NCBI GenBank assembly: GCA_965279375.1
Contig: OZ257156.1
Coordinates: forward strand, 3,424,001-3,488,000
DNA: 64,000 bases
Source: Gemmatimonas sp.
Lineage (GTDB): Bacteria > Gemmatimonadota > Gemmatimonadetes > Gemmatimonadales > Gemmatimonadaceae
Direction: 5' to 3'
Shown here: one piece after another, positions 19,152 to 34,041 of the stretch
Numbering within the stretch: position 1 is the stretch's first letter
Layout of the letters: every line of letters begins with the position of its first letter
Position numbers and translations under genes: made by a program
The notes under the pieces: generated by a model
What the model was told of the DNA's origin: nothing
The model's database searches: none
The model's input: the letters and a program-made list of their open reading frames with translations, nothing else

Positions 19152-19790
19152 TCAGGCGTGCGCGGCCCAGGAGGTCTCGCCCTTCGTGTACGGAAGGCAC
19201 GGGTCGTAGCGGCCCGGGGACTCAGCGTATCGCTGTGCCTGCGTGACCCCGATCTCCGACGTGAAGTAGCCCAGCAGCGAGAGCTCCTTCATCATGCGGA
19301 AGTAATGGGCCGGCTGGTCGCCCTTTCGGGTGTCCATGTACGACTTCTGCTCCTTGTCCAACGTCTCGAGCAGCGTGAGACGCTGCGCGGGCGTGGAGGC
19401 GACGAACGATGCCTTGTTCGCCGTCTGAGACGCCTCCTCCAGCGACTTCATTCCGGCGCGGAAGATCTCCTGATCTTTCGGCTCGTACGTGTCCGTGACC
19501 ATGACGGCCATGAACGCGCCCGTCTTGGCGGCCTTGGCCCCCGGCGTTTTGGTCTCGGGGAGAATCGTGTCCGCGACTTCGTCGAGGAACGCGATCTCTT
19601 CTGCCGTGAACGGCGTGAAGTTGCTCGCGCCCGACGCGTCTCCGGATGCGACGGCGCCGTTGTCCTTCGGCGTGCACCCAGTCCACAGCGCACTGCCGCC
19701 GACGAGGGCGACACCGCCCAGCAACGCGCTCACACGCTTGATCGCCTCACGGCGATGCATCAGAGACATCTCGTCTGTATTCGATGACAT
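19152..19790 (-). CDS. Gluconate 2-dehydrogenase subunit 3 family (Tat small subunit)
   Basis: Twin-Arg HRREAIK, ADTILPETKTPGA, YFRMMKELSLLGYFTSEIG. Confidence 0.88.
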   Translation of the reverse strand: MSSNTDEMSLMHRREAIKRVSALLGGVALVGGSALWTGCTPKDNGAVASGDASGASNFTPFTAEEIAFLDEVADTILPETKTPGAKAAKTGAFMAVMVTDTYEPKDQEIFRAGMKSLEEASQTANKASFVASTPAQRLTLLETLDKEQKSYMDTRKGDQPAHYFRMMKELSLLGYFTSEIGVTQAQRYAESPGRYDPCLPYTKGETSWAAHA

Positions 19791-19802: not shown

Positions 19803-21482
19803 TTAGAGATTGCGCTTGTTGAGTTCACTGACGGCGAAGTCCGCCGCGCGCGCGGTCAGCGCCATGTACGTGAGCGACGGGTTCACCGCTGCCGCCGACG
19901 TCATCCCGGAACCATCGGTGACGAAGACGTTGGGCGCGTCCCACACCTGATTGTGGGCGTTGAGCACCGACGTCTTCGGGTCGCGGCCCATGCGCGCCGT
20001 ACCCATCTCGTGAATGCCCTGACCCGGGAAGTAGCCGTAGTCGTAGGTGTTCACGTTCTTGACGCCCGCGGCGGTGAGCATCTCCGCCATGTCGTTCATC
20101 ATGTCCACACGCATCAGCCGCTCGTTCTCACCAGTGGCGCAATCGATCTTGAGGACCGGCATGCCCCACTTGTCCTTCTTGGTCTCGTCGAGCGTGACCT
20201 TGTTCGCGTGGTTGGGGAGCATCTCGCCGAACGCCATGCCGCCGATGGTCCAGCCGCCCGGCTCGGCCGCCTGATCCTTGAACGCACCGCCGATGCCAGC
20301 TTCCGCGATCGCGCGCGACCACCCCGAGCGACTCGCGCTTCCCTGATAGCCGAAGCCGCGAAGGTAGTCGCGCTTTTCTCCGCCGATGTTGCGATAGCGC
20401 GGGATGTAGAAGCCCGTCGGACGCCGGCCGAAGTAGTACTTGTCGTCCAACCCTTCAAGCTCGCCGTTCGCGCCGAGACGGAAGTGATGGTCCATCAGGT
20501 TGTGTCCAAGCTCGCCCGAGCTGCTGCCAAGTCCGCCCGGCCAGATATCCGTGGCGGAGCGCATCAGCAACCACGTGGAGTTGAGCGTGGACGCGCAGAG
20601 GAAGATGACCTTCGCGCTGTAGTCCTTCGTCTCGTTCGTGACCGCATCGAGCACCCGCACGCCGCTCGCGCGCTTCTTGTCCTTGTCGTACAGCACTTCG
20701 CTGACGATGGAGAAGGGCTTGAGCGTGAGCTTGCCCGTGGCCATGGCCGCCGGAAGCGTGGACGATTGCGTGCTGAAGTACGCGCCGTACGGGCATCCCA
20801 ACCAGCATGCGTCACGCGACTGGCAGGCACCGCGGCCCGGCAGCGCCTGGGTGATGTTCGCGGTGCGCGCGTGAATCAGATGGCGCTTGCCGTCGAAGAG
20901 CCCCTTGAGCTTGTTGCTGACGAGTTCCTCGCCGCAATTGAGCTTGTGCGGGGGCATGAACTGGCCGTCGGGGAGCACTTCGAGACCGTCACGATTGCCC
21001 GCGATGCCGGCGAACTTCTCCACCTTGTCGTACCACGGCGCGATCTCGTTGTAGCGGATCGGCCAGTCGACGGCGACGCCTTCCTTGAGGTTGGCCTCGA
21101 AGTCGATGTCGCTGTGTCGATAGCTCTGGCGCCCCCACATCAGCGAGCGGCCGCCCACGTGGTAGCCGCGATACCAGTCGAAGCGCTTGGCTTCGGTGTA
21201 TGGCGACTCCTCGTCCTTCACCCAGTAGTCGAGATTCTTCTCGTTGAGTGGGTAGTCGCGCTTGAGCACTGGGTAGTGCTTGATCATCTCCTGCGTGCGA
21301 CCGCCGCGATGGGGATATTCCCACGGGCCCTTAGTCGCGTTCAAGTAGTCCTTCACGTGCTCGATGTTGCGTCCACGCTCGAGCAGCAGCACACGGAGAC
21401 CCTTCTCCGTCAACTCCTTGGCTGCCCAACCGCCGGAGATACCCGAACCGACCACGATCGCGTCGTACGTCTGATCCTGCAC
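19803..21482 (-). CDS. GMC oxidoreductase, glycoside 3-dehydrogenase-like flavoprotein (copy A)
   Basis: VGSGISGGWAAKEL, Cys cluster CQSRDACWLGCP, IHEMGTARMG, NPSLTYMALTAR; GTG start after GGGAGG. Confidence 0.92.
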   Translation of the reverse strand: MQDQTYDAIVVGSGISGGWAAKELTEKGLRVLLLERGRNIEHVKDYLNATKGPWEYPHRGGRTQEMIKHYPVLKRDYPLNEKNLDYWVKDEESPYTEAKRFDWYRGYHVGGRSLMWGRQSYRHSDIDFEANLKEGVAVDWPIRYNEIAPWYDKVEKFAGIAGNRDGLEVLPDGQFMPPHKLNCGEELVSNKLKGLFDGKRHLIHARTANITQALPGRGACQSRDACWLGCPYGAYFSTQSSTLPAAMATGKLTLKPFSIVSEVLYDKDKKRASGVRVLDAVTNETKDYSAKVIFLCASTLNSTWLLMRSATDIWPGGLGSSSGELGHNLMDHHFRLGANGELEGLDDKYYFGRRPTGFYIPRYRNIGGEKRDYLRGFGYQGSASRSGWSRAIAEAGIGGAFKDQAAEPGGWTIGGMAFGEMLPNHANKVTLDETKKDKWGMPVLKIDCATGENERLMRVDMMNDMAEMLTAAGVKNVNTYDYGYFPGQGIHEMGTARMGRDPKTSVLNAHNQVWDAPNVFVTDGSGMTSAAAVNPSLTYMALTARAADFAVSELNKRNL

Positions 21483-21638
21483 TGCGTCCTCCCGTGTCAC
21501 GGACTTCCGCGGGGTACTTGGTAGGGAAGCCGGCGATCGCTCACCGGCTGGTAGGAACACTCGTGGGAACTGCAACCTGCGCAATATGTCGTTCGGTACA
21601 CGTTCTGGCGAAAGCCGCTACGGCCGTGCAGTGGCCGC

Positions 21639-23318
21639 TCACAGATTCCGCTTGTTCAACTCGCTGACCGCAAAGTCTACTGCGCGCGCGGTGAGCGCCA
21701 TGTACGTCAACGATGGATTCTGGCACGCCGTGGAGACCATGCAAGCGCCGTCCGTCACAAAGACGTTGGGGGCATCCCAGACCTGATTGTGCTTGTTGAG
21801 CACCGACGTCTTCGGATCCTTCCCCATGCGCGCCGTACCCATCTCGTGAATTCCCTGCCCGGGGAAGTACCCCTGGTCGAAGGTCTTCACGTCGCGCACG
21901 CCGCACTCGCTCAGCATCTCGGCCATGTCGTTCATCATGTCCACGCGCATCAGCCGCTCATTCTCGCCGATGGCGCAGTCGATCTTGAGGACCGGCAGCC
22001 CCCACTTGTCCTTCTTCGTTTCGTCGAGCGTGATCTTGTTGTGGTGGTTGGGGAGCATTTCACCGAAGGCCGTGCCACCGATCATCCACTGGCCAGGCTC
22101 GGCGATCGTGTCCTTGAACCCCGCGCCAACGCCGAGTTCCGCCACGGCCCTGGACCATCCTTGTCTACCCGCTCCGCCCTCGTAGCCGAAGCCACGCAGA
22201 TACGGCCGCTTGTCGCCGTTGAGATTCCGATAGCGTGGGATATACGAGGGATTCGGACGCCTCCCAAAGAGTGTCTTGTCTTCCAGCCCGTCGAGCTTGC
22301 CTTCCGCGCCCAGACGGAAATGGTGGTCCATCAGGTTGTGTCCCAGCTCGCCTGAACTGCTACCGAGCCCGCCGGGCCAGATGTCCTTGGCTGAGTTCAG
22401 CAGCAACCACGTGGAGTTGAGCGTGGACGCGCAGACAAAAACGACCTTGGCGCTGTAGTCGATCGTGGCGTTGGTCAGCGCATCCACGACGCGCACGCCA
22501 GTCGCGCGCTGGCGATTCTTGTCGTACAGCACTTCACTCGCGATTGCGTACGGCCTGAGCGTCAGACGCCCGGTGGCCATCGCGGCGGGGAGCGTGGAGG
22601 ACTGCGTGCTGAAATACGCGCCGTACGGGCAACCCAGCCAACAGGCATCGCGGTACTGACACGCGCTACGTCCCGTCAGTTCACGCGTGAGATTCGCCGT
22701 GCGACTCGAGATGAGTCGGCGCGCACCACCGTACTTCTTCGATAGTCGCCCCGCGACCAATTCCTCGGCGCAGTTGAGTGGCATCGCCGGCTGAAATTCA
22801 CCGTCGGGTAGCTGCGGCAAACCCTCCAACGATCCCGCGATGCCGGCGAACTTCTCCACGTGGCTGTACCACGGCGCCATCTCGGCGTATCGAATCGGCC
22901 AGTCGATCGCGATGCCGTCCTTTGCGTTGGCCTCGAAGTCGATGTCGCTCAGACGAAAGCTGCAGCGCCCCCACATGAGCGAGCGGCCCCCGACGTGGTA
23001 TCCGCGATACCAGTCGAAGCGCTTCACTTCGGTGTAGGGCGAGTCCTCGTCGGACGCCCACCAGTCGAGGTTCTTTTCGTTCAGCGGGAAGTCGCGCTTG
23101 AGCACCGGATAGCGGCGCTCCATTTCCGTCGTGCGGCCGCCGCGATGCGGATACGCCCACGGTGGCTTCACCGCGTTCACGTAGTCCTTGATGTGCTCGA
23201 TGTTCTTGCCGCGCTCGAGCAGCAGGACACGCAAGCCCTTCTCGGACAGCTCTTTCGCTGCCCATCCGCCGGAGATGCCAGAGCCCACGACTATGGCATC
23301 GAACGCCGTCGATTGCAC
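21639..23318 (-). CDS. GMC oxidoreductase, glycoside 3-dehydrogenase-like flavoprotein (copy B)
   Basis: Same motifs and same length (559 aa) as copy A. Confidence 0.92.
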   Translation of the reverse strand: MQSTAFDAIVVGSGISGGWAAKELSEKGLRVLLLERGKNIEHIKDYVNAVKPPWAYPHRGGRTTEMERRYPVLKRDFPLNEKNLDWWASDEDSPYTEVKRFDWYRGYHVGGRSLMWGRCSFRLSDIDFEANAKDGIAIDWPIRYAEMAPWYSHVEKFAGIAGSLEGLPQLPDGEFQPAMPLNCAEELVAGRLSKKYGGARRLISSRTANLTRELTGRSACQYRDACWLGCPYGAYFSTQSSTLPAAMATGRLTLRPYAIASEVLYDKNRQRATGVRVVDALTNATIDYSAKVVFVCASTLNSTWLLLNSAKDIWPGGLGSSSGELGHNLMDHHFRLGAEGKLDGLEDKTLFGRRPNPSYIPRYRNLNGDKRPYLRGFGYEGGAGRQGWSRAVAELGVGAGFKDTIAEPGQWMIGGTAFGEMLPNHHNKITLDETKKDKWGLPVLKIDCAIGENERLMRVDMMNDMAEMLSECGVRDVKTFDQGYFPGQGIHEMGTARMGKDPKTSVLNKHNQVWDAPNVFVTDGACMVSTACQNPSLTYMALTARAVDFAVSELNKRNL

Positions 23319-23423: not shown

Positions 23424-24599
23424 CTACACGCCCAGACCGCGACCGCCCGTCAGAAGCGCGTAGCCACGCGGAGTAACACGGCGCAGCAAGGCACCAACCG
23501 CCACACAGAACGCCGCGACGAGCAACGGCAGCAGCAGGAAGGTGAGCAGTCGGTAGTTGGGCACGGTCTGGACCCGCGGGAAAACCCAGGCCAGCGCGTA
23601 GTTGAGCAGCGGCACGTGCAACGCGTAGATCATGAACGAGAAGCCGCTCACCCACACGAACCACCGCTGCCGCATCGCCACACGCACCATCGGGTCGATG
23701 CCGTACCACATCACCAGCATCCCGCCACCCACCACGATCTTGTACAGCACGAGCAGGTACGGGGCCCACCCCCAGTTACCCTGAAACGCCATCCAGGTCT
23801 TGAGCGCGGCCAGCGCCACCCAGATCGCGGCTGCTGGCGCGAGCTGAAGCCAGCGCGGCTTGGTCGCGATGTCGAAGTCGGTCTTGCACAGCCAGATGCC
23901 CAGCGTGAAGAACAACAATCCCTCGCTCTCCACGAACCAGAGATTGATGTTCGAGAGCCAGAAGAGCACCGCAACCGCGAGCGTCACGCGCGGCCAGCGC
24001 AATGCGCGCACGAGCAACGGATACGCCAGGTTGTAAAAAAACAGGCAGCGCAAAAACCAGAGCTGGAAGGACGCCGGCATCATGATCAGCCGATCCCAGA
24101 GCTGCTGCAGCGAGTACTGCGCCACGGGCAGGTCCCCGAATGGCGAGAGCTGCGCCGAGCGAACGGCCTCGCGACCGACCACGGTGAGCTCGAGGGCGTA
24201 GGTCAGCGCGAGTCCAATCGCGCTCCACAACACGTAGGGCACCAGCAGTGTGCGTACGCGCTTTCGGATGCGACCGACAAACGGTTGCGCGTCGTGCATT
24301 GCGAACAGAAAGCCCGAAATGATGAACAGAATCGGGATGCGGAACCGGAACAGGCCATTCGCGAGCAGATACTGCGTGAAGGTGTTGAACGTCAGCGGCT
24401 CGTCCACCATCGACACGGGCTGCAGATACCGCTCGTTCAGGTTGTAGCCGTGCACGTAGCCGAGGAGCAGCATCGCGAGAAACGAGAAGAAGCGGAATTT
24501 CTCGCTGGTGAACGCGGACACCGCACGCGCGGGCGCAACGGGGCGGGCGGACTCGGCGCCAACGGTCACCGTCGACGGCATCTGGGTGGGGATCGTCAT
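23424..24599 (-). CDS. Acyltransferase family 3 membrane protein
   Basis: About 10 TM segments, YVH, RFRIPILFIISGFLF, RVRTLLVPYVLW, QLWFLRCL, SFMIYALH. Confidence 0.85.
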   Translation of the reverse strand: MTIPTQMPSTVTVGAESARPVAPARAVSAFTSEKFRFFSFLAMLLLGYVHGYNLNERYLQPVSMVDEPLTFNTFTQYLLANGLFRFRIPILFIISGFLFAMHDAQPFVGRIRKRVRTLLVPYVLWSAIGLALTYALELTVVGREAVRSAQLSPFGDLPVAQYSLQQLWDRLIMMPASFQLWFLRCLFFYNLAYPLLVRALRWPRVTLAVAVLFWLSNINLWFVESEGLLFFTLGIWLCKTDFDIATKPRWLQLAPAAAIWVALAALKTWMAFQGNWGWAPYLLVLYKIVVGGGMLVMWYGIDPMVRVAMRQRWFVWVSGFSFMIYALHVPLLNYALAWVFPRVQTVPNYRLLTFLLLPLLVAAFCVAVGALLRRVTPRGYALLTGGRGLGV

Positions 24600-24703: not shown

Positions 24704-25201
24704 ATGTCTCTCCGCCCCCTCGCCCGCCAACGTGAATCGATCCGAGCTCGGCGCCCGCACACCAACGCGTCGAGCGCCGTCGCGAGGCAAAGGCGGATAC
24801 GCACCTCGCGACGCGCGGTGACGTTCACGCTGCTCATGCTCGGCCTCGCCGGATGCGTCGGCAGCAGCGTGCGGAAGGCGTCGCCGTCGAGTGCTGGCCC
24901 CACCATCCTGACCGTGACGCCAACCCCGTTCCTGCTGCACGAAGGGAGTAACGCGGTCCTCACCATTCGCGGCGAAAGCTTCAGCGCCGACTCCAACAGC
25001 GTGCGCATCGGTGCGCAGCAATGGGATGGAATCCCGTCGCAGGATGCAGGCACGCGTATTCAATTCATCGTGCCTGATCGGGTGCCCAGTGGTGGGGGAG
25101 CGGCGCCCATGCTGTGGGCGAGTGGCGAGTATGCGGTCTCGGTGCGTACGCGACAAGGCGTCTCGCGCGCAGTATCGCTGACGATTCAAACTTCTCCATG
25201 A
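24704..25201 (+). CDS. Small lipoprotein with an IPT/TIG-like Ig domain
   Basis: Lipobox LAGC, PTILTVTP, LTIRGESF, GEYAVSVRT..GVS. The start may be further downstream. ATGA overlap with the next gene. Confidence 0.7.
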   Translation: MSLRPLARQRESIRARRPHTNASSAVARQRRIRTSRRAVTFTLLMLGLAGCVGSSVRKASPSSAGPTILTVTPTPFLLHEGSNAVLTIRGESFSADSNSVRIGAQQWDGIPSQDAGTRIQFIVPDRVPSGGGAAPMLWASGEYAVSVRTRQGVSRAVSLTIQTSP

Positions 25202-27456
25202 CTGCGACGTACCAGAGACTCCGATGGCTGGCGTTGGTCGCACTGGTTGCGCTCGCGCGGTGCGGCGGCTCGTCTGAGGCACCTGATGTGCCGCCGACGT
25301 TGGCCATCGTGCAGGGCGCGTCGGTCGCCATCAACTCGGGCGAGTCGGTGGCGCTCTCGGTGCGCGCAACCGATCAGAAGGGCCGTGTGGCCGCGGCCAC
25401 CGACGTGCGCTGGACGACCGCCGATTCGATGGTCGTCTCGGTGTCCGCGACCGGCACCATTCGCGGACGCGTTCTCGGACAGGCGTCGGTCACCGCGTCG
25501 TACGCCGGCGTGACGGCATCCACGGTCGTCACTGTGTCACCCGGCGCCCCTGCCACGCTCGTGGTGCGCACCGCCCCTGCCGGCGCCAGCGCGGGCACGG
25601 CGTTCACGACGCAGCCCGTGATCGAACTGCGCGACGGCGCTGGCAATCTCGCAACGACCGCCACGACGCCGGTCTCGGTCTCCATCGCGTTGGGCGGCGG
25701 ATCGCTGCTGGGCGCGACCACGGTGAATGCCAGCGCAGGGGTGGCCTCGTTCACGTCGCTCGCGCTCGACGGCGTCGTTGGGGAACGCGTCCTGCGCTTC
25801 AGCGCGTCCGGGCTTCCCGCCGTCGATGCGCGCCTCGCCGTGGTCGCCGGAGCACCGGTCGCACTCGGCCTGCGCACGCAACCAGACGGCGCGGTCGCCG
25901 GGAGCGTGTTCACCACACAACCAGTCATCGAAGTGCGCGATGCCTCCGGCAACGTGAGCAACGTCGCGCTCCCCGTCACCGCAACGATCAGCGGCGGCGG
26001 CGGCCTTCTCGCCGGCAACGTGACTGTCACGTCGGTCGCGGGCGTCGCCACCTTCACCAATCTCGCGATCTCCGGCGCGATCGGCACGCGCACTCTCAGC
26101 TTCAGCACGCCGGCGCTCGCGGCGAGCGTGGCTAGCACAGGCTTCGTGTTGCGCGCAGGCGCGCCGGTCGCGCTGGCGCTACGCACGGCGCCGACCGGCG
26201 GAGGACTCAACCAGCCCTTCGCCGAGCAGCCGGTCGTCGAGGCGCGCGACGGGTCGGGCAATGTTGCCACTTCGGCAACCGGCACGGTCGACATTTCCAT
26301 CGCCTCGGGCGGTGGATCCGTCACTGGCGCTGTGGCGCCGCTGGTGCAGGGAGTTGCCACCTTCAGCGGCTTCTCCGTGGTTGGTACGGCCGGCGCGCGG
26401 ACGCTCACCATCTCGGCACCCAATCTGCCCCCAATCGCCACCATCGTGCGTCCGTGCGATGCGCAGCGCGGTCCGGCGATCGCACTCGCGGCAACTTCGC
26501 GTACGCTCTCCGCACTCGTCGCCGGCCCCGTCGTGCTCGACCTGATCGCGCTGAACGAGACGGTCGGAAGCTGCATCCTGCCTGGTGGTCTGCAGGCGAG
26601 TGTGAACAACGCGGCCGGCGCCACGTGGTTGACCGTTTCGCTGAACACGAGCCGCACCGCGCTTGAGCTTCGCGCCGATCCGCGCGGGCTGGCCGTGGGC
26701 AGCTACACCGCGACTGCCATGATCACCACGTCCAACGCGGGGACGATCACGCTTCCGATCACGCTCAACGTCACTTCGTCGTTCCCGATCGTCTACGGCG
26801 CTGTCGATCAGAAGCTGCTGCAGCTCGATCCCGGTGGCAGCGTCAAGCCCATTACCATCGTCTCCGACAACCAGGGCGCGCCTGTCGCCCAGCCGGTGTC
26901 GTATCAGAGTCGCTCGCCCAGCAGCGTGACGGTTGCGTCCGATGGCACCATCACTGCACGGGCGGAGGGCGCCGCGTGGATCGTCGCGCGGGTCAGCGGC
27001 GCTTCGGGCCTCGCCGATTCGCTCTTCGTGAATGTCACGGGCGGAGCAGGGCCGGTGTTGCGCACGAACGCCACGCGAATCGCCTACGACCGCAACTCGA
27101 CCTTCTCGATCACGTTGCAACTCGACACGCGCGGCGTCACCGTCGGAGCGGCGCAGCTCATCTTCTCGTGGCCGTCCAATGCAGACGTCCCCGGCTTCCT
27201 GCAACTCACGGATGTCGTCAACGGCGGATCGGGCTCTACCTCTTTCTCCATCGACAACGCGACCGGAACGGCGCGAATCTCGATGGTCAGCGCGACGGGC
27301 TTCAACGGACTGATCACCGTCGCGCGCTTCGACTTCAAACCCATCACGACGGGCAGTTCGCTGTTCACCACCCGATTCGTGGATCTACTCGCCCCAGACC
27401 AACGCTCCCTGCTCGGCAATGCGTCGGCGCTCCTCTATCCGGTCGTCGTTCGATGA
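25198..27456 (+). CDS. Multi-Ig surface scaffold: Big_2, three Ig-like repeats, BACON-like, Big_2, C-terminal cohesin-like domain
   Basis: Signal with CGG (atypical lipobox LARC); WTTADSMVVSVSATG; three GAP...QPV.E.RD..GN repeats; TWLTVS...GSYTAT; beta-rich C-domain TFSITLQLD...VGAAQLIFSW...VARFDFK. Confidence 0.75.
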   Translation: MTATYQRLRWLALVALVALARCGGSSEAPDVPPTLAIVQGASVAINSGESVALSVRATDQKGRVAAATDVRWTTADSMVVSVSATGTIRGRVLGQASVTASYAGVTASTVVTVSPGAPATLVVRTAPAGASAGTAFTTQPVIELRDGAGNLATTATTPVSVSIALGGGSLLGATTVNASAGVASFTSLALDGVVGERVLRFSASGLPAVDARLAVVAGAPVALGLRTQPDGAVAGSVFTTQPVIEVRDASGNVSNVALPVTATISGGGGLLAGNVTVTSVAGVATFTNLAISGAIGTRTLSFSTPALAASVASTGFVLRAGAPVALALRTAPTGGGLNQPFAEQPVVEARDGSGNVATSATGTVDISIASGGGSVTGAVAPLVQGVATFSGFSVVGTAGARTLTISAPNLPPIATIVRPCDAQRGPAIALAATSRTLSALVAGPVVLDLIALNETVGSCILPGGLQASVNNAAGATWLTVSLNTSRTALELRADPRGLAVGSYTATAMITTSNAGTITLPITLNVTSSFPIVYGAVDQKLLQLDPGGSVKPITIVSDNQGAPVAQPVSYQSRSPSSVTVASDGTITARAEGAAWIVARVSGASGLADSLFVNVTGGAGPVLRTNATRIAYDRNSTFSITLQLDTRGVTVGAAQLIFSWPSNADVPGFLQLTDVVNGGSGSTSFSIDNATGTARISMVSATGFNGLITVARFDFKPITTGSSLFTTRFVDLLAPDQRSLLGNASALLYPVVVR
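25540..26450 (+). repeat. Three tandem ~100-aa Ig-like protein repeats inside the scaffold gene
   Basis: GAPATLVVRTAP..FTTQPVIELRDGAGN / GAPVALGLRTQP..FTTQPVIEVRDASGN / GAPVALALRTAP..FAEQPVVEARDGSGN, each followed by GVA[ST]F. Boundaries are approximate. Confidence 0.85.
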
Positions 27457-27463
27457 GGGCACT

Positions 27464-28009
27464 ATGACCGCGCCCCACGGTGTGCTCACCCCGCGCATGT
27501 TGGTGACAGCGCTGCTCACGGCCACAGTGCTGCTCGCCGCCGCCTGTCGAGAGAAGGGCAGTGCGGATGTGAGCGCGCCGCTGCCTGCGCTGCGCGTGGC
27601 GAGTCTCACGCTCGAAATCGATCGCGATCGCACCAACGACGGGGCGGGCGACAGTCTCTGGACGGCCACGCTGCGCCTCAGCGATGCCCCAGCCGCCTTG
27701 CGCCTTGGCAGCATCACAGCATCGGTGGACTTCGACACCACACGCGTACGCTTCCTGGGTGATGTAACTCCCGGCGATCAGGCGCTGCGCGCGGTACATG
27801 TGGAACGAGGGCGATTGCATCTCGCGAGCGCTTCGGCCACCGGGTTGTCGCCGGACGGCATGTTTCAGCTGCGCTTCGTGTCGCGCGACACGGCCGCTCT
27901 GCAGGCGATGCGACTCGACCTGAGTGAAGCGCACGCCATCGACGCCACCGACGTGCGTCGCGCGCTCTCGATTGCGCCCGTGCGGCGCGTTACGCCGAGC
28001 GTGCCGTGA
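27464..28009 (+). CDS. Small lipoprotein with a cohesin-like domain
   Basis: Lipobox LAAAC; LGSITASVDFDTTRVRFLG, GRLHLASASATG and MFQLRF resemble cohesin strands. Confidence 0.65.
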   Translation: MTAPHGVLTPRMLVTALLTATVLLAAACREKGSADVSAPLPALRVASLTLEIDRDRTNDGAGDSLWTATLRLSDAPAALRLGSITASVDFDTTRVRFLGDVTPGDQALRAVHVERGRLHLASASATGLSPDGMFQLRFVSRDTAALQAMRLDLSEAHAIDATDVRRALSIAPVRRVTPSVP

Positions 28010-30474
28010 TGCGCCGTGGCGGATGGTGCACGATGCTGGCGGGGCTCGGCCTGTGGGCGCTGGCGACGACACTCCGCGCGCAGGAGGTGCGCGAGGTCGA
28101 GGGAGACGTGCGGGAACGCGTGGAGTGGATGCTGCGCGATCGCGCCTATCCGTTTGGTGAGATCGATCGCAGTCCCGTGTTCGCTGCTCGAGCATCAGCG
28201 CTCTTCAATCGCATCGCGCCCGCACTGACCGCGGTCGCTCCTTGGCGCTCCGTCGGCCCGTTCGGCTTTCAGACGTCAGCGTTCTACGGCTCGTCGCCGC
28301 TGGCCGACGGCGGGCGCGTGCGTGCGATCGCCATCGACCCGCGCAACTCGAGTGTGATTTATGCGGGCTCTGCCTCGGGAGGCGTCTGGCGCACCAGCAA
28401 TGGAGGCGCCACGTGGACGCCGCTGACTGACGCGCAGTGTTCGCTCACTACGGGCGCAATCGCTATCGATCCCGTCGACCCCAGCATTCTGTATGTCGGC
28501 ACCGGCGAGCCGACGCAGTCGAACGGGTGCGGTCTGCTGCGAACGTTCGATGGTGGCGCAACGTGGACCGAGATCAACGGTGGTGGCGTGCTCGCGCCCA
28601 CCAACGGCACGCGTGCCAGTCAGACATATCGCATCGCCATCGATCCGGGGTCGGCAGGTTCGCGTACCTCGACCGTTGTCTTGTACGCGGCCTCCAACGG
28701 ACTCCATCGCTCGGCGAATAGTGGCGCAACTTGGACCACCGTGCTCACTGGCTTCGTGACCGACGTGCACGCCGACCCGACGCGATCGAACGTCTTCTGG
28801 GCGGCGGTGGGGAACAGCAGCAGTCGCGGTGGTATCTGGCGCTCGGCTGATCGCGGCGTCACCTGGACGCAGGTCTATCGCGCGCCGGCAGGGAGCGGTC
28901 GCATCGGGTTGGGAATGTCGAGCGCCGCCCCGGGGCGACTCTGGGCTGCGATGTCCAACACCGCCGACAATCGACTCGGTACCTTCCTTCGCTACGACGA
29001 TCGCGACGAGAGCGTGGCGATTCTGGCAGCAACGGGCGTCAACGACAACTCCACGCGACTCGACTTCGGCGGTCAGACGTCGTACAACCTGGTGGTCGAG
29101 GCCGATCCGACCGACTCCGCGACGGTGTACCTGGGCGGCTCGCGCATGTATCGCTCGCGTGATGGCGGCGCGACGTTCTCGCTCGTGGCGTACAACCTGC
29201 ACGTGGACTGGCACGCATTCGAGTTCGCGCCAAGCGACCCGACGGTGATCGTCAGCGGCAGCGATGGCGGAGTGCATGCATCGTACGACGGCGGCGAACG
29301 CTGGATCAGCCGCAATACCAACATCGTCGTCGCGCAGTTCTATCCGGGCATCGGCATACATCCAAGCACGCCGGATGTGCTCGTTGGTGGCCTGCAGGAC
29401 AACAGCACCCTCTGGGCGTTCGGCTCACCGTACTGGACGCTGGCGGTTGCCAGCGGCGATGGGGGCGCCGGCGGATTCAGCCCCGACAACCCCGACATCT
29501 TCTGGTCCACGAGCTACAGCGTCGGCTCGATCTATCGCATCACGCGGTCGGGGTTGGGCTTCGGGCTTGGCGTCGAGAATCGCGGCTTCACTGTGAACAC
29601 GGCGGAGCGTAAGCGCTTTCTGCCGCCAATGGTGATCGACCCCAGCACCGGCTCGACGCTGTACTACGGTACGTATCGGCTGTGGCGCACGACGGCGGAG
29701 GGCCGGTTCGGCAGCTGGTCACCCATCACGCCCGACCTGACGAAGGGCGCCGGCGTCATCAACACCATCGAGGTCGCGCCATCCGACCCGCGCGTGATCT
29801 GGGTGGGCACCAACGACGGCAACGTGCACCGGTCGATAGACGGCGGCGCGTCGTTCACGCTGGTCTCCGCGTCGCTTCCCAACCGGGCGGTTACCAAGAT
29901 TGCGGCCGATCCGCTCGACGCGCGTCGTGCTCTGCTGACGCTGTCAGGGTTTGGGACGCCGCACCTGTACCTGACCACCGATCAGGGGGCGACGTGGGCG
30001 AATGTGTCCGGTGCTCTCCCGGACCTGCCGTTCAATGCGGCCGTCATCGTCCCCGGTACCAACCGATTCTTCGCAGCGGGCGACATCGGCGTGTACGAGA
30101 CCGCGGATGCCGGGGCCACATGGGCGAACGCATATCCCGGCTTGCCGAACGTGCAGGTGCTCGACCTCGTGCTCCAGCGCAGCACCGGACTGCTGTACGC
30201 CGGTACCTACGGACGCGGCATCTTCTCCACCAGCGTGCTCACTGGGCGTACCGCGCTGCGTGGCGACGTCAACGGTGACGGGGCCGTGAATGCGGGGGAC
30301 GCCCTGTTGGCGCAGCTCGCCATCGTTGGACTCTTCCCTTCGAGTGCCGGCAACCCGCTGCCAGCGGCCGACGCCAACTGCAATGGCCGGATGGACGCCG
30401 GGGACCCGTTGGCCATTCTGCAGTTCGCCGTGGGCACGCCGGTTCCGGGGCTGTGCGTCGGCACCGTGCGCTAG
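28009..30474 (+). CDS. Secreted BNR/Asp-box beta-propeller protein (GH74/VPS10-like) with C-terminal dockerin type I domain
   Basis: Signal peptide LRA-Q; many [ST].[DN]GG.[TS]W boxes; duplicated Ca-loops GDVNGDGAVNAGD and ADANCNGRMDAGD. Confidence 0.88.
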   Translation: MRRGGWCTMLAGLGLWALATTLRAQEVREVEGDVRERVEWMLRDRAYPFGEIDRSPVFAARASALFNRIAPALTAVAPWRSVGPFGFQTSAFYGSSPLADGGRVRAIAIDPRNSSVIYAGSASGGVWRTSNGGATWTPLTDAQCSLTTGAIAIDPVDPSILYVGTGEPTQSNGCGLLRTFDGGATWTEINGGGVLAPTNGTRASQTYRIAIDPGSAGSRTSTVVLYAASNGLHRSANSGATWTTVLTGFVTDVHADPTRSNVFWAAVGNSSSRGGIWRSADRGVTWTQVYRAPAGSGRIGLGMSSAAPGRLWAAMSNTADNRLGTFLRYDDRDESVAILAATGVNDNSTRLDFGGQTSYNLVVEADPTDSATVYLGGSRMYRSRDGGATFSLVAYNLHVDWHAFEFAPSDPTVIVSGSDGGVHASYDGGERWISRNTNIVVAQFYPGIGIHPSTPDVLVGGLQDNSTLWAFGSPYWTLAVASGDGGAGGFSPDNPDIFWSTSYSVGSIYRITRSGLGFGLGVENRGFTVNTAERKRFLPPMVIDPSTGSTLYYGTYRLWRTTAEGRFGSWSPITPDLTKGAGVINTIEVAPSDPRVIWVGTNDGNVHRSIDGGASFTLVSASLPNRAVTKIAADPLDARRALLTLSGFGTPHLYLTTDQGATWANVSGALPDLPFNAAVIVPGTNRFFAAGDIGVYETADAGATWANAYPGLPNVQVLDLVLQRSTGLLYAGTYGRGIFSTSVLTGRTALRGDVNGDGAVNAGDALLAQLAIVGLFPSSAGNPLPAADANCNGRMDAGDPLAILQFAVGTPVPGLCVGTVR

Positions 30475-30735
30475 CGAGCAGCGCTGCGGGCGCTAGATGG
30501 TTTGCTGGCGAACGGTGGAACTTCGTTGCTGATCTGCGACGAAGTCGGTGCGTCAGGGGGACCAGGGGCGCGCTAAATTACGCGAGTCGATCGGAGCCGT
30601 TTTTCCAACCGGCACGGGTGGTGCGCTGCGTCCCGCAGCTCGTCGCCGCCTTCGTTACACACCATCGCACGGCTGAGTGCCTGTCGATCGGTGGATGTAT
30701 CAGCTATGCGAAGACCAAACTCTCAGGAGATGGGA

Positions 30736-33700
30736 ATGAAGCGCTGGTTCACGAAGTTTGCGGGAGCGGCGCTGTCGCTCACGCTTGGGCTCTTGCTCGC
30801 AGCCCCGATCACTGCGCTCCGCGCGCAGGGTGTCACCACCGGCTCGATGAGCGGTACGGTGAAGAGCGACAAGGGCGTCGTTGCCTCGGCACGAATCGTT
30901 GCCGTCCATCAGCCATCTGGCACGACCTATCAGGCGCTGAGCCGCGCCGACGGTCGCTTTCTGATCCCCGCCATGCGCGTCGGCGGCCCCTACACGGTGA
31001 CGGCCATCGCGCTCGGCTACGAGCGCAATGCGCAGAACGGGCTCGAGGTCACGCTCGGCTCCTCCACCGACGTGAGCTTTGAACTCAAGACCGTCGCAGT
31101 GGTGCTCTCGGGCGTCCAGGTCACGGCCACTGGTGGTGCGCTCAGCTCGCGTATCACAGGCGCCTCGACGACGATTCCGAAGGAAGCCATCGCGGCGTTC
31201 CCGACCATCGGCCGTACGATCACCGACTTCACGCGTCTGACGCCGCAGTCCAGCGGATCCTCGTTCGCGGGTCAGGACAACCGCCTGAACAACATCACGC
31301 TCGATGGATCGTACTTCAACAACTCGTTCGGTCTGGGCTCGCAGCCGGGTGCCCGCACGGGCGTGTCGCCGATTCCGATCGACGCCATCGAGCAGATTCA
31401 GGTCAACATCGCGCCGTTCGACGTGCGCCAGGGCGGCTTCACCGGCGCCGGCGTCAACGCAGTCACCAAGAGCGGCGGCAACGAATTCAAGGGCTCGCTC
31501 TACTACACCACGCGTAACCAGGGGCTCGTCGGCGACAGCACGGCCGGCGTCTTCTTCAACAAGGGCAAGTTCAAGTTCACGCAGCCCGGCGGTTACGTCA
31601 GCGGCCCGCTGATCAAGAACAAGCTGTTCTTCTTTGTGGACTACGAGACGGACGAGCTCACGCAGCCGGCGACGAGCTTCGTGGCGAACACGGGCGGTCA
31701 GGCGATCTCCGGCAACACCACGCGCGTGCTGCAGTCGGATATCGCGACGCTCAGCGCCTTCCTCAAGGACAAGTTCAACTACGTGACCGGTCCGGCGCAG
31801 GGCTTCAACCTCGCGGTTCCGTCCAACCGTACGATCGCGAAGATCGACTGGAACGTGAACGACCGGAACAAGTTCAGCTTCCGCTATAGCGATCTCGAGT
31901 CCAAGTCCGACCAGCCGATCTCCAACTCCAACGCCCTCGGCACGCTCGGCAATCGTCGCGACAACCTCAACTCGATGAGCTTCCAGAACTCCGGATACGC
32001 CATCAAGGAAAACGCGACGTCGTACATCGGTGAATTGAACTCGCAGATCGGTTCGAACATGTCGAACCAGATCATCGCCGGTTACACCACGAACGACGAA
32101 AGCCGCGAGTCGAAGGGCACGCTCTTCCCGCTCGTGGACATCAACAACAACGGCACGAACTACCTCTCGTTCGGCTTCGAGCCGTTCACGCCGAACAACG
32201 TGCTGAAGTACAACACGTGGCAGTTCCAGGACAACTTCACCATCTACACCGACAAGCACGACCTCACCTTCGGTGTGACGGCGCAGCGCTACAAGTCCGA
32301 CAACGGCTTCTCGCCGGGTCTGCAGAGCGCGTACGTGTACAACTCGCTCGCCGACTTCTACGCAGACGCGAATGGCTTCCTGGCGAACCCGACGCGCACG
32401 ACGTCGCCGGTCTCGCTCAGCCGCTTCCAGGTCCGTTACAACAACATCCCGGGCCTCGACGCACCGATCCAGCCGCTGCGTGTGAACACGTACGGCGCCT
32501 ACGCACAGGACGAATGGCGTGCGACGCGCAACCTCAAGGTCACGATGGGGCTGCGTATCGACGTGCCGATGTTCGAGAACACGGCGTTCAACAACTCGCA
32601 GGCCAACGCGCTGACGTTCCGCGACGAGACCGGCGCGGCCGTCAAGTACAACACTGGCAAGCTGCCGGACGCCAACCCGCTGATCTCGCCGCGCGTCGGC
32701 TTCAACTGGGACGTGCAGGGCGATCGTCGCACGATCGTCCGCGGCGGTACCGGTATCTTCAGCGGCACGCCGCCGTACGTCTGGATCTCCAACCAGCTCG
32801 GCAACACCGGCGTGCTGACCGGCTTCGACCAGCGCGACAACACCACCACGCGCCCGTTCAATCCGAACCCGGATACGTACAAGCCGACGACGGTGACCGG
32901 CGCGCCGGCTCCCACGTACGAGCTCAACGTGACGGCGCAGGACTACAAGTTCTCGCAGGTGTGGCGCACGAACCTCGCCGTTGACCGTCGCCTCCCGTGG
33001 GGCTTCATCGGCACGTTCGAAGGCCTCTACAGCACCGAAGTGAACGGCCCGTACTACATCAACGCGAACCTCCCGGCCGCCAACTCCGCCTTCACGGGCG
33101 CTGACAAGCGTCCGCGTTGGACCGCTGGCAACAACCGTATCAACAGCAACGTCAGCGCCGCGTACGTCATCAGCAACGCGACCACGGGCTACTCGTACAA
33201 CCTCTCCGGCTCACTCGCGAAGTCGTTCACCAACGGCTTCTTCGCCAAGGCGGCCTACGCCTATGGCGTGTCGAAGAACTCGTACGATCCGGGCTCGACG
33301 GCCGCCACGAACTGGACGGCGAACGCGCAGGCCGGTGACCCGAACAATCCGGGCGTGCAGTTCTCGCAGTACTCCCCGGGACACCGAGTCTTCCTCGCGC
33401 TGTCGTACCGCAAGGAGTACTTCAAGTTCGGCGCGACGTCGATCTCGCTCTTCACGGAAGGCCGCACGCAGGGCAACACGTCGTACACGTTCAGCGCGGA
33501 CGCCAACGGCGACGCCGCTGCCGCGAACGACTTGATCTACATCCCGCGCAACGCCTCGGAAATGAACTTCCAGCAGTACGGCGTGAACGCGGCCGGCACG
33601 GTCGTCACGACGAACCCGGTGCGCGTCTTCACCGTCGCCGAGCAGCAGACGGCATGGGAAGCGTACATCCAGCAGGACAAATACCTCTCCTCGCGCCGCG

Positions 33701-34041
33701 GCCAGTACGCCGAGCGTGGTGCGGTCTTCCTGCCGATTCTCTTCCGCAGCGACCTTGGCGTCACGCAGGAAATCTTCCAGAACGTCGGCGGCAAGCGGAA
33801 CACGATCGCGATCCGCTTCGACATCCTGAACCTCGACAACTTGCTCAACAAGAAGTGGGGCGCGGGTGACCGCCTGGTCTCCAGCACGCCGCTCCTGCCG
33901 CAGGGTGCGGATGCCAACGGCGCGCTGCTCTATCGTCTGCGCAACTTCGGCACGAACCTCATCAACACCACGTACCAGCACACGGCCGGTATCTCCGACG
34001 TGTGGCGTATGCAGTTGGGCGTGCGGTACACGTTCAACTAA
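30736..34041 (+). CDS. TonB-dependent receptor, Oar-like, with N-terminal carboxypeptidase-regulatory-like domain
   Basis: AGGAG RBS, signal peptide, NNITLDG...IDAIEQIQV..APFDVRQGGFTGAGVNAVTKSG plug, C-terminal QLGVRYTFN. Confidence 0.92.
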   Translation: MKRWFTKFAGAALSLTLGLLLAAPITALRAQGVTTGSMSGTVKSDKGVVASARIVAVHQPSGTTYQALSRADGRFLIPAMRVGGPYTVTAIALGYERNAQNGLEVTLGSSTDVSFELKTVAVVLSGVQVTATGGALSSRITGASTTIPKEAIAAFPTIGRTITDFTRLTPQSSGSSFAGQDNRLNNITLDGSYFNNSFGLGSQPGARTGVSPIPIDAIEQIQVNIAPFDVRQGGFTGAGVNAVTKSGGNEFKGSLYYTTRNQGLVGDSTAGVFFNKGKFKFTQPGGYVSGPLIKNKLFFFVDYETDELTQPATSFVANTGGQAISGNTTRVLQSDIATLSAFLKDKFNYVTGPAQGFNLAVPSNRTIAKIDWNVNDRNKFSFRYSDLESKSDQPISNSNALGTLGNRRDNLNSMSFQNSGYAIKENATSYIGELNSQIGSNMSNQIIAGYTTNDESRESKGTLFPLVDINNNGTNYLSFGFEPFTPNNVLKYNTWQFQDNFTIYTDKHDLTFGVTAQRYKSDNGFSPGLQSAYVYNSLADFYADANGFLANPTRTTSPVSLSRFQVRYNNIPGLDAPIQPLRVNTYGAYAQDEWRATRNLKVTMGLRIDVPMFENTAFNNSQANALTFRDETGAAVKYNTGKLPDANPLISPRVGFNWDVQGDRRTIVRGGTGIFSGTPPYVWISNQLGNTGVLTGFDQRDNTTTRPFNPNPDTYKPTTVTGAPAPTYELNVTAQDYKFSQVWRTNLAVDRRLPWGFIGTFEGLYSTEVNGPYYINANLPAANSAFTGADKRPRWTAGNNRINSNVSAAYVISNATTGYSYNLSGSLAKSFTNGFFAKAAYAYGVSKNSYDPGSTAATNWTANAQAGDPNNPGVQFSQYSPGHRVFLALSYRKEYFKFGATSISLFTEGRTQGNTSYTFSADANGDAAAANDLIYIPRNASEMNFQQYGVNAAGTVVTTNPVRVFTVAEQQTAWEAYIQQDKYLSSRRGQYAERGAVFLPILFRSDLGVTQEIFQNVGGKRNTIAIRFDILNLDNLLNKKWGAGDRLVSSTPLLPQGADANGALLYRLRNFGTNLINTTYQHTAGISDVWRMQLGVRYTFN

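Follow-up and report, generated by a model that had tools for sequence, protein, structure and literature searches.

Within the window, the 64,000-nucleotide stretch of DNA analysed here, a cassette of four genes (g1 to g4) was delimited, and its features are listed in Table 1. The genes g1 and g2 share an ATGA overlap (25198 to 25201), g2 and g3 are separated by a 7-nt gap (27457 to 27463), and g3 and g4 meet at a TGATG junction (28007 to 28011); the co-oriented arrangement proposed from the letters alone was thus borne out by the ORF coordinates and the junction sequences. No match to a sigma-70 promoter or an intrinsic terminator was observed between positions 24300 and 31000. The gene pattern is not due to chance, since dozens of related loci carry the same cassette. 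Judging by the names given to homologues and related loci, the cassette is of Gemmatimonadaceae affinity, and it is conserved among bacteria of this type. The downstream TonB-dependent receptor and the upstream acyltransferase were found as neighbours in 0 of 85 related loci (E 1e-20), and both were therefore left out of the system.

Table 1. Genes and domains of the cassette, with positions counted from the first letter of the window
Feature	Positions	Strand	Description
g1	24704-25201	+	165-aa ORF; predicted lipoprotein, LAGC lipobox (Cys51), single IPT/TIG Ig domain; putative accessory protein
g2	25198-27456	+	752-aa ORF; predicted lipoprotein stalk, about six Ig-like domains and a C-terminal cohesin-fold domain
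Stalk cohesin domain	27049-27453	+	g2 residues 618-752; AlphaFold and structure search
g3	27464-28009	+	181-aa ORF; predicted lipoprotein, AAAC (Cys28), one cohesin-fold domain
Small cohesin domain	27590-27985	+	AlphaFold and structure search
g4	28009-30474	+	821-aa ORF; predicted cleavable signal, BNR/Asp-box propeller region (GH74/Vps10-like), C-terminal dockerin
Dockerin	30250-30471	+	Two Ca-loop/helix repeats; PF00404 above cut-off; conservation

The first three products are predicted to be lipoproteins. The TIG match of g1, whose start codon position is uncertain, is weak and under the Pfam cut-off (E 0.0027), and an Atlas search with g1 returned TIG clusters only. The g2 stalk includes two Big_2-like domains and three internal repeats that are 48 to 54% identical. 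Its lipobox reads L-A-R-C, in which the Arg at -1 is atypical, and is preceded by A-L-A, which could be a signal peptidase I site. Using a simple pattern search, lipobox-like motifs were found in 62 of 67 TIG proteins (6 of which have Arg at -1), 60 of 62 related stalks and 82 of 85 small cohesins. The mature stalk varies from 332 to 771 aa among relatives.

The beta-rich domains at the end of g2 and in g3 had been taken for cohesins, and the motifs cited for them were found in the sequence. The start of the g2 domain was moved from 27050 to 27049, which is in frame. Both domains gave confident AlphaFold models (pLDDT 91.4 for g2 and 94.7 for g3). In a search of 48,161 chains, the top 16 rows for the g2 model and the top 20 for the g3 model were all cohesins, suggesting the nine-stranded cohesin jelly-roll rather than a generic Ig fold, as had been proposed. 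The closest match of the g2 domain was the cohesin 2xdh, both by Foldseek (E 4.3e-8) and by VIA (Z 16.0, rmsd 1.9 over 121 residues); Foldseek also agreed for the g3 domain, which VIA superposed on 2xdh with Z 13.2 and rmsd 2.5 over 117 residues. The alignments from which the AlphaFold models were built also contained family members of a more canonical type, and this may bias the models towards the cohesin fold. The cohesin assignment thus holds for the fold of the predicted models and fails at the level of a Pfam sequence match, as Pfam Cohesin (PF00963) matched neither domain, nor anything elsewhere in the genome. The two domains converge on one family profile, whose best PDB match is again 2xdh (E 6.6e-7), and 14 of 39 aligned family members match Pfam Cohesin at E <= 0.1 (best 6.5e-11). 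Because PF00963 does not match the window domains themselves, they are remote members of this family at most; their identity to solved cohesins is 7 to 18%. Since Pfam misses these cohesin-fold domains, surveys probably undercount them.

The g2 and g3 cohesins form separate subfamilies that lie side by side, each with its own conserved residues. A word-based homologue search with g3 returned only itself from 1899 candidates. In an alignment of 105 sequences, the small cohesin conserves S41/T43, A68, R(H)77/A79/A81, G85 and E113/H115 (domain numbering). These residues alternate along strands 3, 5, 6 and 8 of the model, and their exposure was deduced from this alternation. In cohesins, strands 3, 5, 6 and 8 form the docking face. 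Conservation along strands 8-3-6-5 is weaker in the g2 domain than in g3, and the small cohesin appears to carry the most invariant presumed docking face. The stalk domain also matches the CLIPPER structure 9ifr (Z 12.1) and pilins (Z 10-11), behind the cohesins. The CLIPPER/CnaA isopeptide domain is described, in the part of the preprint available, as forming a Lys-Asn bond with a catalytic Asp (bioRxiv 10.1101/2025.04.25.650565). Here, the g3 domain contains no Lys, the g2 domain contains a single unconserved one, and Lys reaches at most 20% in any alignment column. We therefore rejected a CLIPPER or pilin identity, given the clear first rank of the cohesins and the lack of a conserved isopeptide Lys.

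The g4 product gave BNR and Sortilin-Vps10 Pfam matches, the latter weak, together with a weak match to the Ycf48 model, and contains 9 Asp-boxes. Its closest solved relatives by sequence are the GH74 structures 6p2m, 6p2l and 1sqj (E 2e-16 to 1e-10). The Asp of the GH74 ARTDIGG motif, which we take to be the first catalytic Asp, aligns with Ala123 of g4. Among the 110 of 120 homologues matched in this column, 103 have Ala, 5 Ser, 1 Pro, 1 Gly and none Asp, and the HxDxH and GxQDN motifs occur in all 120. The absence of this Asp indicates that g4 is not a standard xyloglucanase, and a GH74 xyloglucanase identity was rejected.

The duplicated Ca-loop at the end of g4, read earlier as a dockerin, was verified by Dockerin_1 (PF00404), which scored 35.9 bits on the isolated domain against a cut-off of 22.9 (E 8.8e-9). 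By convention, the dockerin Ca-loop is numbered with Asp/Asn at positions 1, 3, 5, 9 and 12. D1 and D12 are kept in both repeats by 104 to 105 of 105 sequences. Symmetric repeats were not found: position 17 is mostly Gln in repeat 1 (94 of 105 sequences) and mostly Leu in repeat 2 (100 of 105). Repeat 1 also conserves A10 (101 sequences) and Q18 (80), and repeat 2, in which position 10 is variable, conserves V21 and G22 (101 each). Cys44 and Cys69 are near-invariant and are predicted to form a disulfide clasp. In 5 of 120 propeller homologues, the dockerin is replaced by an Ig stalk and a T9SS-like tail, the tail match being below cut-off (TIGR04183, E 3.7e-4).

Linkage was evaluated in propeller-dockerin loci chosen by dockerin similarity, of which 88 had 4600 nt or more of upstream DNA; the related genomes among them are not independent. 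At least one cohesin gene lies in the cassette in 88/88 of these loci: the small cohesin in 87, the stalk cohesin in 82 and the TIG lipoprotein, fused to a cohesin in some, in 77. Two loci, L223 and L227, apparently carry the small cohesin only. In family f1 (70 genomes), 17 genomes match the cohesin profile, 16 the dockerin profile and 15 both, so the expected co-occurrence in relatives was observed. The sole f1 genome with a dockerin only by profile has two divergent cohesin-like genes adjoining its dockerin gene. The stalk/small-cohesin tandem also accompanies other dockerin cargoes, namely M6 and M12-like peptidases, RCC1 repeats, beta-helix and PD40 proteins.

The host genome (99.95% complete) has one canonical dockerin; a second Pfam dockerin match was rejected as a loop in a SusC-like receptor. 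The cassette has one cohesin per protein and no multi-cohesin scaffoldin was found, so that the label "mini-scaffoldin" given to it by the sequence-only reading is too strong for single cohesins with a single cargo. CBM3 is absent from the genome (control positive), and neither GH48 (control silent in every genome) nor the TIGR04183 T9SS tail (control silent too) gave a genome match; a small home-made T9SS tail profile gave one weak genome match. The genome also encodes an SprA homologue and, within a T2SS-like cluster, a second secretin. Cohesin-like genes form a second cluster elsewhere in this genome, where such domains end several other stalks, which shows that these domains occur without a canonical dockerin.

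As predicted lipoproteins with predicted cohesin folds are combined with a matching dockerin on the propeller, the latter is likely held at the membrane. We lean towards a model in which the g4 propeller, predicted to be secreted, docks through its predicted calcium-binding dockerin onto the predicted cohesins of g3 and g2, probably on the outer face of the outer membrane. The products of g1 to g3 would be lipidated and g4 cut by signal peptidase I, and all four would be moved out, plausibly by the type II secretion-like system of the genome. Since g4 has only a Sec-type signal without a secretion tail and the GspD-like secretin scores below the TIGR02517 cut-off, its export past the periplasm is tentative. 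One dockerin would bind one cohesin at a time. The small cohesin of g3, being the most constant gene with the most conserved face, would be the main anchor, and the g2 stalk would provide a further docking post that raises the propeller above the membrane, with g1 as an accessory subunit. The propeller may bind or process a ligand at its conserved His/Asp site, other than as a standard GH74 xyloglucanase. Docking by dockerin and cohesin would take on the role that the fused Ig stalk and T9SS-like tail appear to play in the few homologues mentioned above. A three-chain complex prediction of the g2 domain, the g3 domain and the dockerin gave ipSAE values of 0.23 and 0.21, where the mark is 0.32; as the tool is calibrated on two chains, these values count neither for nor against docking. 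Covariation between small cohesin and dockerin (90 to 105 paired sequences) reached a maximum z of 6.2 against 6.6 in shuffles. For the stalk, z was 7.5 against 6.0 with the dockerin, where the top pair looks clade-driven, and 7.9 against 6.4 with the small cohesin, each with four shuffles only. The covariation values were therefore given no weight in the model.

The asymmetric dockerin might instead be two-handed or relayed, each repeat taking one cohesin, which would yield a ternary complex or a transfer from g3 as carrier to g2 as display stalk. The different residues conserved in repeats 1 and 2, and the two cohesin subfamilies maintained side by side, are in keeping with this; we nevertheless consider it unlikely, because the asymmetry also fits a single binding mode and two loci apparently have the small cohesin alone. 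In addition, type I dockerins use both faces alternately on one cohesin, according to the available part of PMC12484212.

Docking within the periplasm seems quite unlikely. In that case, inward-facing lipoproteins would hold a propeller that, in the manner of the Ycf48 and Vps10 types, acts in the assembly of the envelope or in its quality control. Lipoproteins face inward by default, and the Sec-type signal of g4, its weak matches to Ycf48 and Sortilin-Vps10 and the missing GH74 Asp would suit such a role. However, the stalk length varies more than twofold, some homologues have a T9SS-like tail, the other cargoes of the tandem look extracellular, and the unconserved flanking genes indicate no envelope pathway. 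A very unlikely reading is that no cohesin-dockerin binding takes place. The cohesin folds would then serve as structural caps or as the tips of adhesins (CnaA/CLIPPER-like), and the dockerin would be a lone calcium-binding cap or a module for another partner. The adhesin and pilin matches of the stalk domain and the stalks of the second cluster could be explained in this way, but the cohesins rank clearly first for both models, no Lys is conserved for an isopeptide bond, the linkage to the dockerin gene is near-absolute, and relatives combine cohesin and dockerin in one chain.

Docking of the propeller onto the two lipoproteins would resemble the non-cellulosomal pair of Archaeoglobus fulgidus, whose cohesin (2xdh) is the best structural match of both domains and which likewise involves single-cohesin proteins with no cellulase context. 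Archaeal cohesin-dockerin pairs are reported to bind in the available part of PMC9012536. The present case differs in its diderm bacterial host, lipoprotein anchors, two cohesin subfamilies, Ig stalk, TIG subunit and propeller cargo, and identity is 14 to 17%. The single-cohesin anchoring proteins OlpA (3ul4) and OlpC (4dh2) of Clostridium thermocellum, and type I cohesin-dockerin pairs, share the predicted fold (Z 11-15); there too, each envelope-anchored protein has one cohesin and holds one dockerin protein, with two Ca-loop repeats in the dockerin. C. thermocellum anchoring proteins use SLH, in contrast to the lipid anchor predicted here, and neither a multi-cohesin scaffoldin nor CBM3 was found in the present system. 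The dockerin here is asymmetric and has a Cys pair, unlike the symmetric type I dockerins (PMC12484212, available part). The g4 propeller shares Asp-box repeats with GH74 xyloglucanases (6p2m, 6p2l, 1sqj) and Vps10/BNR propellers, with Ala in place of the ARTDIGG Asp of GH74.

Both non-cellulosomal pairs and examples from diderms have been published before. Peer et al. 2009 reportedly may list Gemmatimonas. For diderms, cohesin/dockerin systems were put forward in Saccharophagus degradans (PMC2386152) and as a "planctosome" in Planctomycetes (PMC6461901), as proposals rather than binding tests. They concern another phylum, other anchors and other cargo, in contrast to the compact conserved cassette with two lipoprotein cohesins described here. 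No study of this cassette was found in the partly accessible Gemmatimonas and gemmatimonad literature on dockerins and cohesins, and "gemmatimonad" has 0 occurrences in the main text of PMC11557425. The cassette is a small, fully specified test case, as it comprises a single dockerin and two candidate cohesins, each about 135 residues long, with known conserved residues and about 100 variants in nature. It bears on the role of non-cellulosomal cohesins and dockerins, especially in diderms, would reveal how proteins are retained on the envelope in a widespread phylum that has been little studied, and is a potential source of new cohesin-dockerin pairs for protein assembly.

A broader reading, speculative and on the whole improbable, is that Gemmatimonadota have their own modular cohesin-dockerin system for display, which they use as an alternative to T9SS tails. 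The asymmetric, disulfide-clasped dockerin would engage the two lipoprotein cohesins with one repeat each, as a ternary bridge or a carrier-to-stalk relay, and the four-gene cassette would be the minimal form. Relatives in which every cargo protein starts with both a cohesin and a dockerin would then extend this form into head-to-tail chains on the surface.

Four co-oriented ORFs, joined by ATGA (g1/g2), 7-nt (g2/g3) and TGATG (g3/g4) junctions, had been described from the sequence alone, and the ORF coordinates bear this out. The stalk protein, g2, comprises about six Ig-like segments, among them three internal repeats with a mutual identity of 48-54%, and the predicted dockerin at the C-terminus of g4 was recovered by Pfam. 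The genome carrying the window, G000, is a single 5.3-Mb contig with a completeness of 99.95%; the names of homologues and of related loci suggest that it belongs with the Gemmatimonadaceae.

Features of the cassette and its surroundings in the window
Feature	Coordinates	Strand	Description
Partner gene	19152-19790		small; follows the oxidoreductase genes
Oxidoreductase genes	19803-23318	-	two, tandem, highly similar
g1	24704-25201	+	ORF; Pfam: weak TIG
g2	25198-27456	+	ORF; Pfam: Big_2
g2 lipobox	25255-25266		LARC, Arg at -1
g3	27464-28009	+	ORF; no Pfam match
g4	28009-30474	+	ORF; Pfam: BNR, Sortilin-Vps10, Dockerin_1 (last above cut-off)
Receptor-like gene	30730-34041		TonB-dependent type, CarboxypepD_reg domain; 255 nt downstream of g4

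The sequence-only reading had also taken the beta-rich domains of g2 and g3 for cohesins; predicted fold and family profile support this assignment, but Pfam Cohesin matched neither domain in searches of the window and genome. When a family was built by iterating homologues from 14 regions of relatives, the g2-domain and g3-domain seeds both converged on a single family, in which Pfam Cohesin matched 14 of 39 aligned members and whose profile returned cohesins as its top three PDB matches (best the Archaeoglobus fulgidus cohesin 2xdh, E 6.6e-7). In the Atlas, g3 fell close to unnamed Gemmatimonadota clusters (0.95) and, at 0.92, to a cohesin cluster in which 58% of the members carry PF00963. 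AlphaFold models of g3 and the g2 domain (pLDDT 94.7 and 91.4) were compared against 48,161 chains, and cohesins filled the top 20 rows for g3, where 2xdh led with Z 13.2 (rmsd 2.5, 117 residues); for the g2 domain they filled the top 16, again led by 2xdh, with Z 16.0 (rmsd 1.9, 121 residues). Foldseek agreed for both; the cohesin fold may be favoured in these models because the input alignments included more canonical family members. Outside the cohesins, the g2 domain came closest to CLIPPER (Z 12.1), a reading that was rejected; the Lys that CLIPPER requires (bioRxiv 10.1101/2025.04.25.650565) is absent from these domains.

The cassette is a real, conserved system. Among 301 genomes of the phylum, the cohesin profile matched 44 and the dockerin profile 37; in the window's family the figures were 17/70 and 16/70, with both in 15. 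In G009, where only the dockerin profile matched, two divergent cohesin-like genes adjoin the dockerin gene; the two genomes of this family with a cohesin match alone carry a different cluster. The dockerin matched 187 genome loci and 171 metagenome loci; to survey operon conservation, as the earlier reading had proposed, we took the best 80 from each set. A propeller with a dockerin was encoded by 138 of these 160, and excluding 50 with <4600 nt upstream left 88, among which there are 77 distinct dockerins. The small cohesin accompanied 87/88, the stalk cohesin 82/88 and the TIG gene 77/88, counts that are not independent, since the loci are related and were chosen by dockerin similarity. Of the six loci missing a stalk cohesin, four have a divergent stalk visible by eye and none was seen in two. 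The commonest gene order was stalk, small cohesin, TIG, propeller (58/88), the window's order occurring in 8/88, and comparison of flanking genes revealed no conserved neighbours, the TonB-dependent receptor-like gene included. The propeller protein of one locus (L212) has a fused cohesin. In six loci (L076, L163, L165, L242, L247, L251) the TIG domain is fused to a small-type cohesin, a link between g1 and the cohesin module. Eight loci (L025, L028, L030-L033, L069, L072) form a clade with long branches of both cohesins and an extra cysteine pair in the small one. In the window, the tandem oxidoreductase genes, which we take to be of the GMC type, lie on the g1 side of the cassette.

The g4 propeller is related by sequence to GH74 enzymes, with Ala at the position of their first catalytic Asp, and HxDxH and GxQDN motifs occur in 120/120 propeller homologues. 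G000 encodes 16 further paralogues of this propeller; a survey for other dockerin genes left g4 as the sole strong match to the dockerin profile. A dockerin forms the C-terminus of 112 of the 120 nearest homologues, a set that counts g4 itself.

The reading we favour above the others, and consider somewhat probable, is that g4 would dock through its dockerin, calcium-dependently, onto cohesins that lipid anchors hold at the cell surface; g3 would be the main anchor and g2 an extended post. In 105 small cohesins, S41 (96%), T43 (87%), A68 (82%), R77 (78%), A79 (99%), A81 (85%), G85 (100%), E113 (92%) and H115 (83%) are conserved and lie, in the AlphaFold model, on strands 3, 5, 6 and 8, presumably the dockerin-binding face of cohesins in known complexes. 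In the stalk cohesins (90 sequences), the conserved residues are R28 (100%), R76 (88%) and A80 (78%), and the E-x-H motif is not among them. Small, stalk and cargo cohesins group by role in a 68-row tree (0/200 shuffles as low), in which support for the small group is weak (78/76) and stalks split into two groups. The dockerin keeps its Ca-loop residues in both repeats, the helices of the two repeats differ, and Cys44 (100%) and Cys69 (99%) are conserved and inferred to form a disulfide clasp. Among rival readings, a two-handed or relayed dockerin seems unlikely; that no cohesin-dockerin binding takes place is, in our judgement, very improbable.

As to location, lipobox-like motifs are near-universal among relatives of g1, g2 and g3, and mature stalks span 332-771 aa. 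Five of the 120 propeller homologues have, in place of the dockerin, a Big_2-type stalk and a T9SS-like tail that scores below the TIGR04183 cut-off; G000 encodes a homologue of the T9SS translocon SprA (G000:C1:4894235-4900633, above the TIGR04189 cut-off) and a second secretin inside a T2SS-like cluster, whose neighbours were identified by our own reading. Together, these features favour the outer surface as the predicted location, and we regard a periplasmic complex as rather improbable. The SprA homologue adjoins type IV pilus assembly-like genes, and almost no T9SS-tail proteins are detectable in G000. Arg at -1 of the g2 lipobox recurs in 6/62 TIG relatives; lipoprotein processing in Gemmatimonadota may tolerate it.

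In its predicted working, surface docking by the cassette resembles the single-cohesin anchors OlpA/OlpC and the Archaeoglobus cohesin-dockerin pair. It is not a cellulosome, because it has no multi-cohesin scaffoldin, one canonical dockerin and no CBM3. Published papers document non-cellulosomal pairs (PMC9012536), propose diderm systems for Saccharophagus (PMC2386152) and Planctomycetes (PMC6461901), and report Bacteroidetes dockerins in rumen metagenomes (PMC6487960); our search of the open-access literature found no study of this cassette in Gemmatimonadota. The cassette offers a testable system.

Among 1.84 billion representatives, the cohesin family profile matched 5165 proteins with E <= 0.001, and 73 of the 150 best matches also contain a dockerin. 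Other families of the order have the tandem of stalk and small cohesin ahead of two to four large proteins with an N-terminal cohesin plus dockerin and beta-helix or PD40 domains; elsewhere the tandem has a peptidase or an RCC1 protein as its cargo. This varied cargo and wide family suggest that the tandem is a mount which can be reused with one cargo or another. At six loci (L026, L027, L035, L036, L086, L087) each of the two to four large secreted proteins that follow the stalk/small-cohesin tandem in an operon starts with a cohesin and a dockerin of symmetric repeats, and these could assemble into head-to-tail chains. Outside the window, G000 holds a second cluster of cohesin-like genes (G000:C1:2034000-2054000; L089, L090), adjoining a TonB-dependent receptor, with several stalk proteins (PKD, CarboxypepD, Big_2) bearing one or two cohesin-like domains. 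The cluster also encodes a 765-aa lipoprotein, whose N-terminal cohesin-like domain is accompanied by an interrupted dockerin-like segment and a probable beta-helix (no Pfam match), and similar clusters were found in three comparison genomes (G308, G315, G073).
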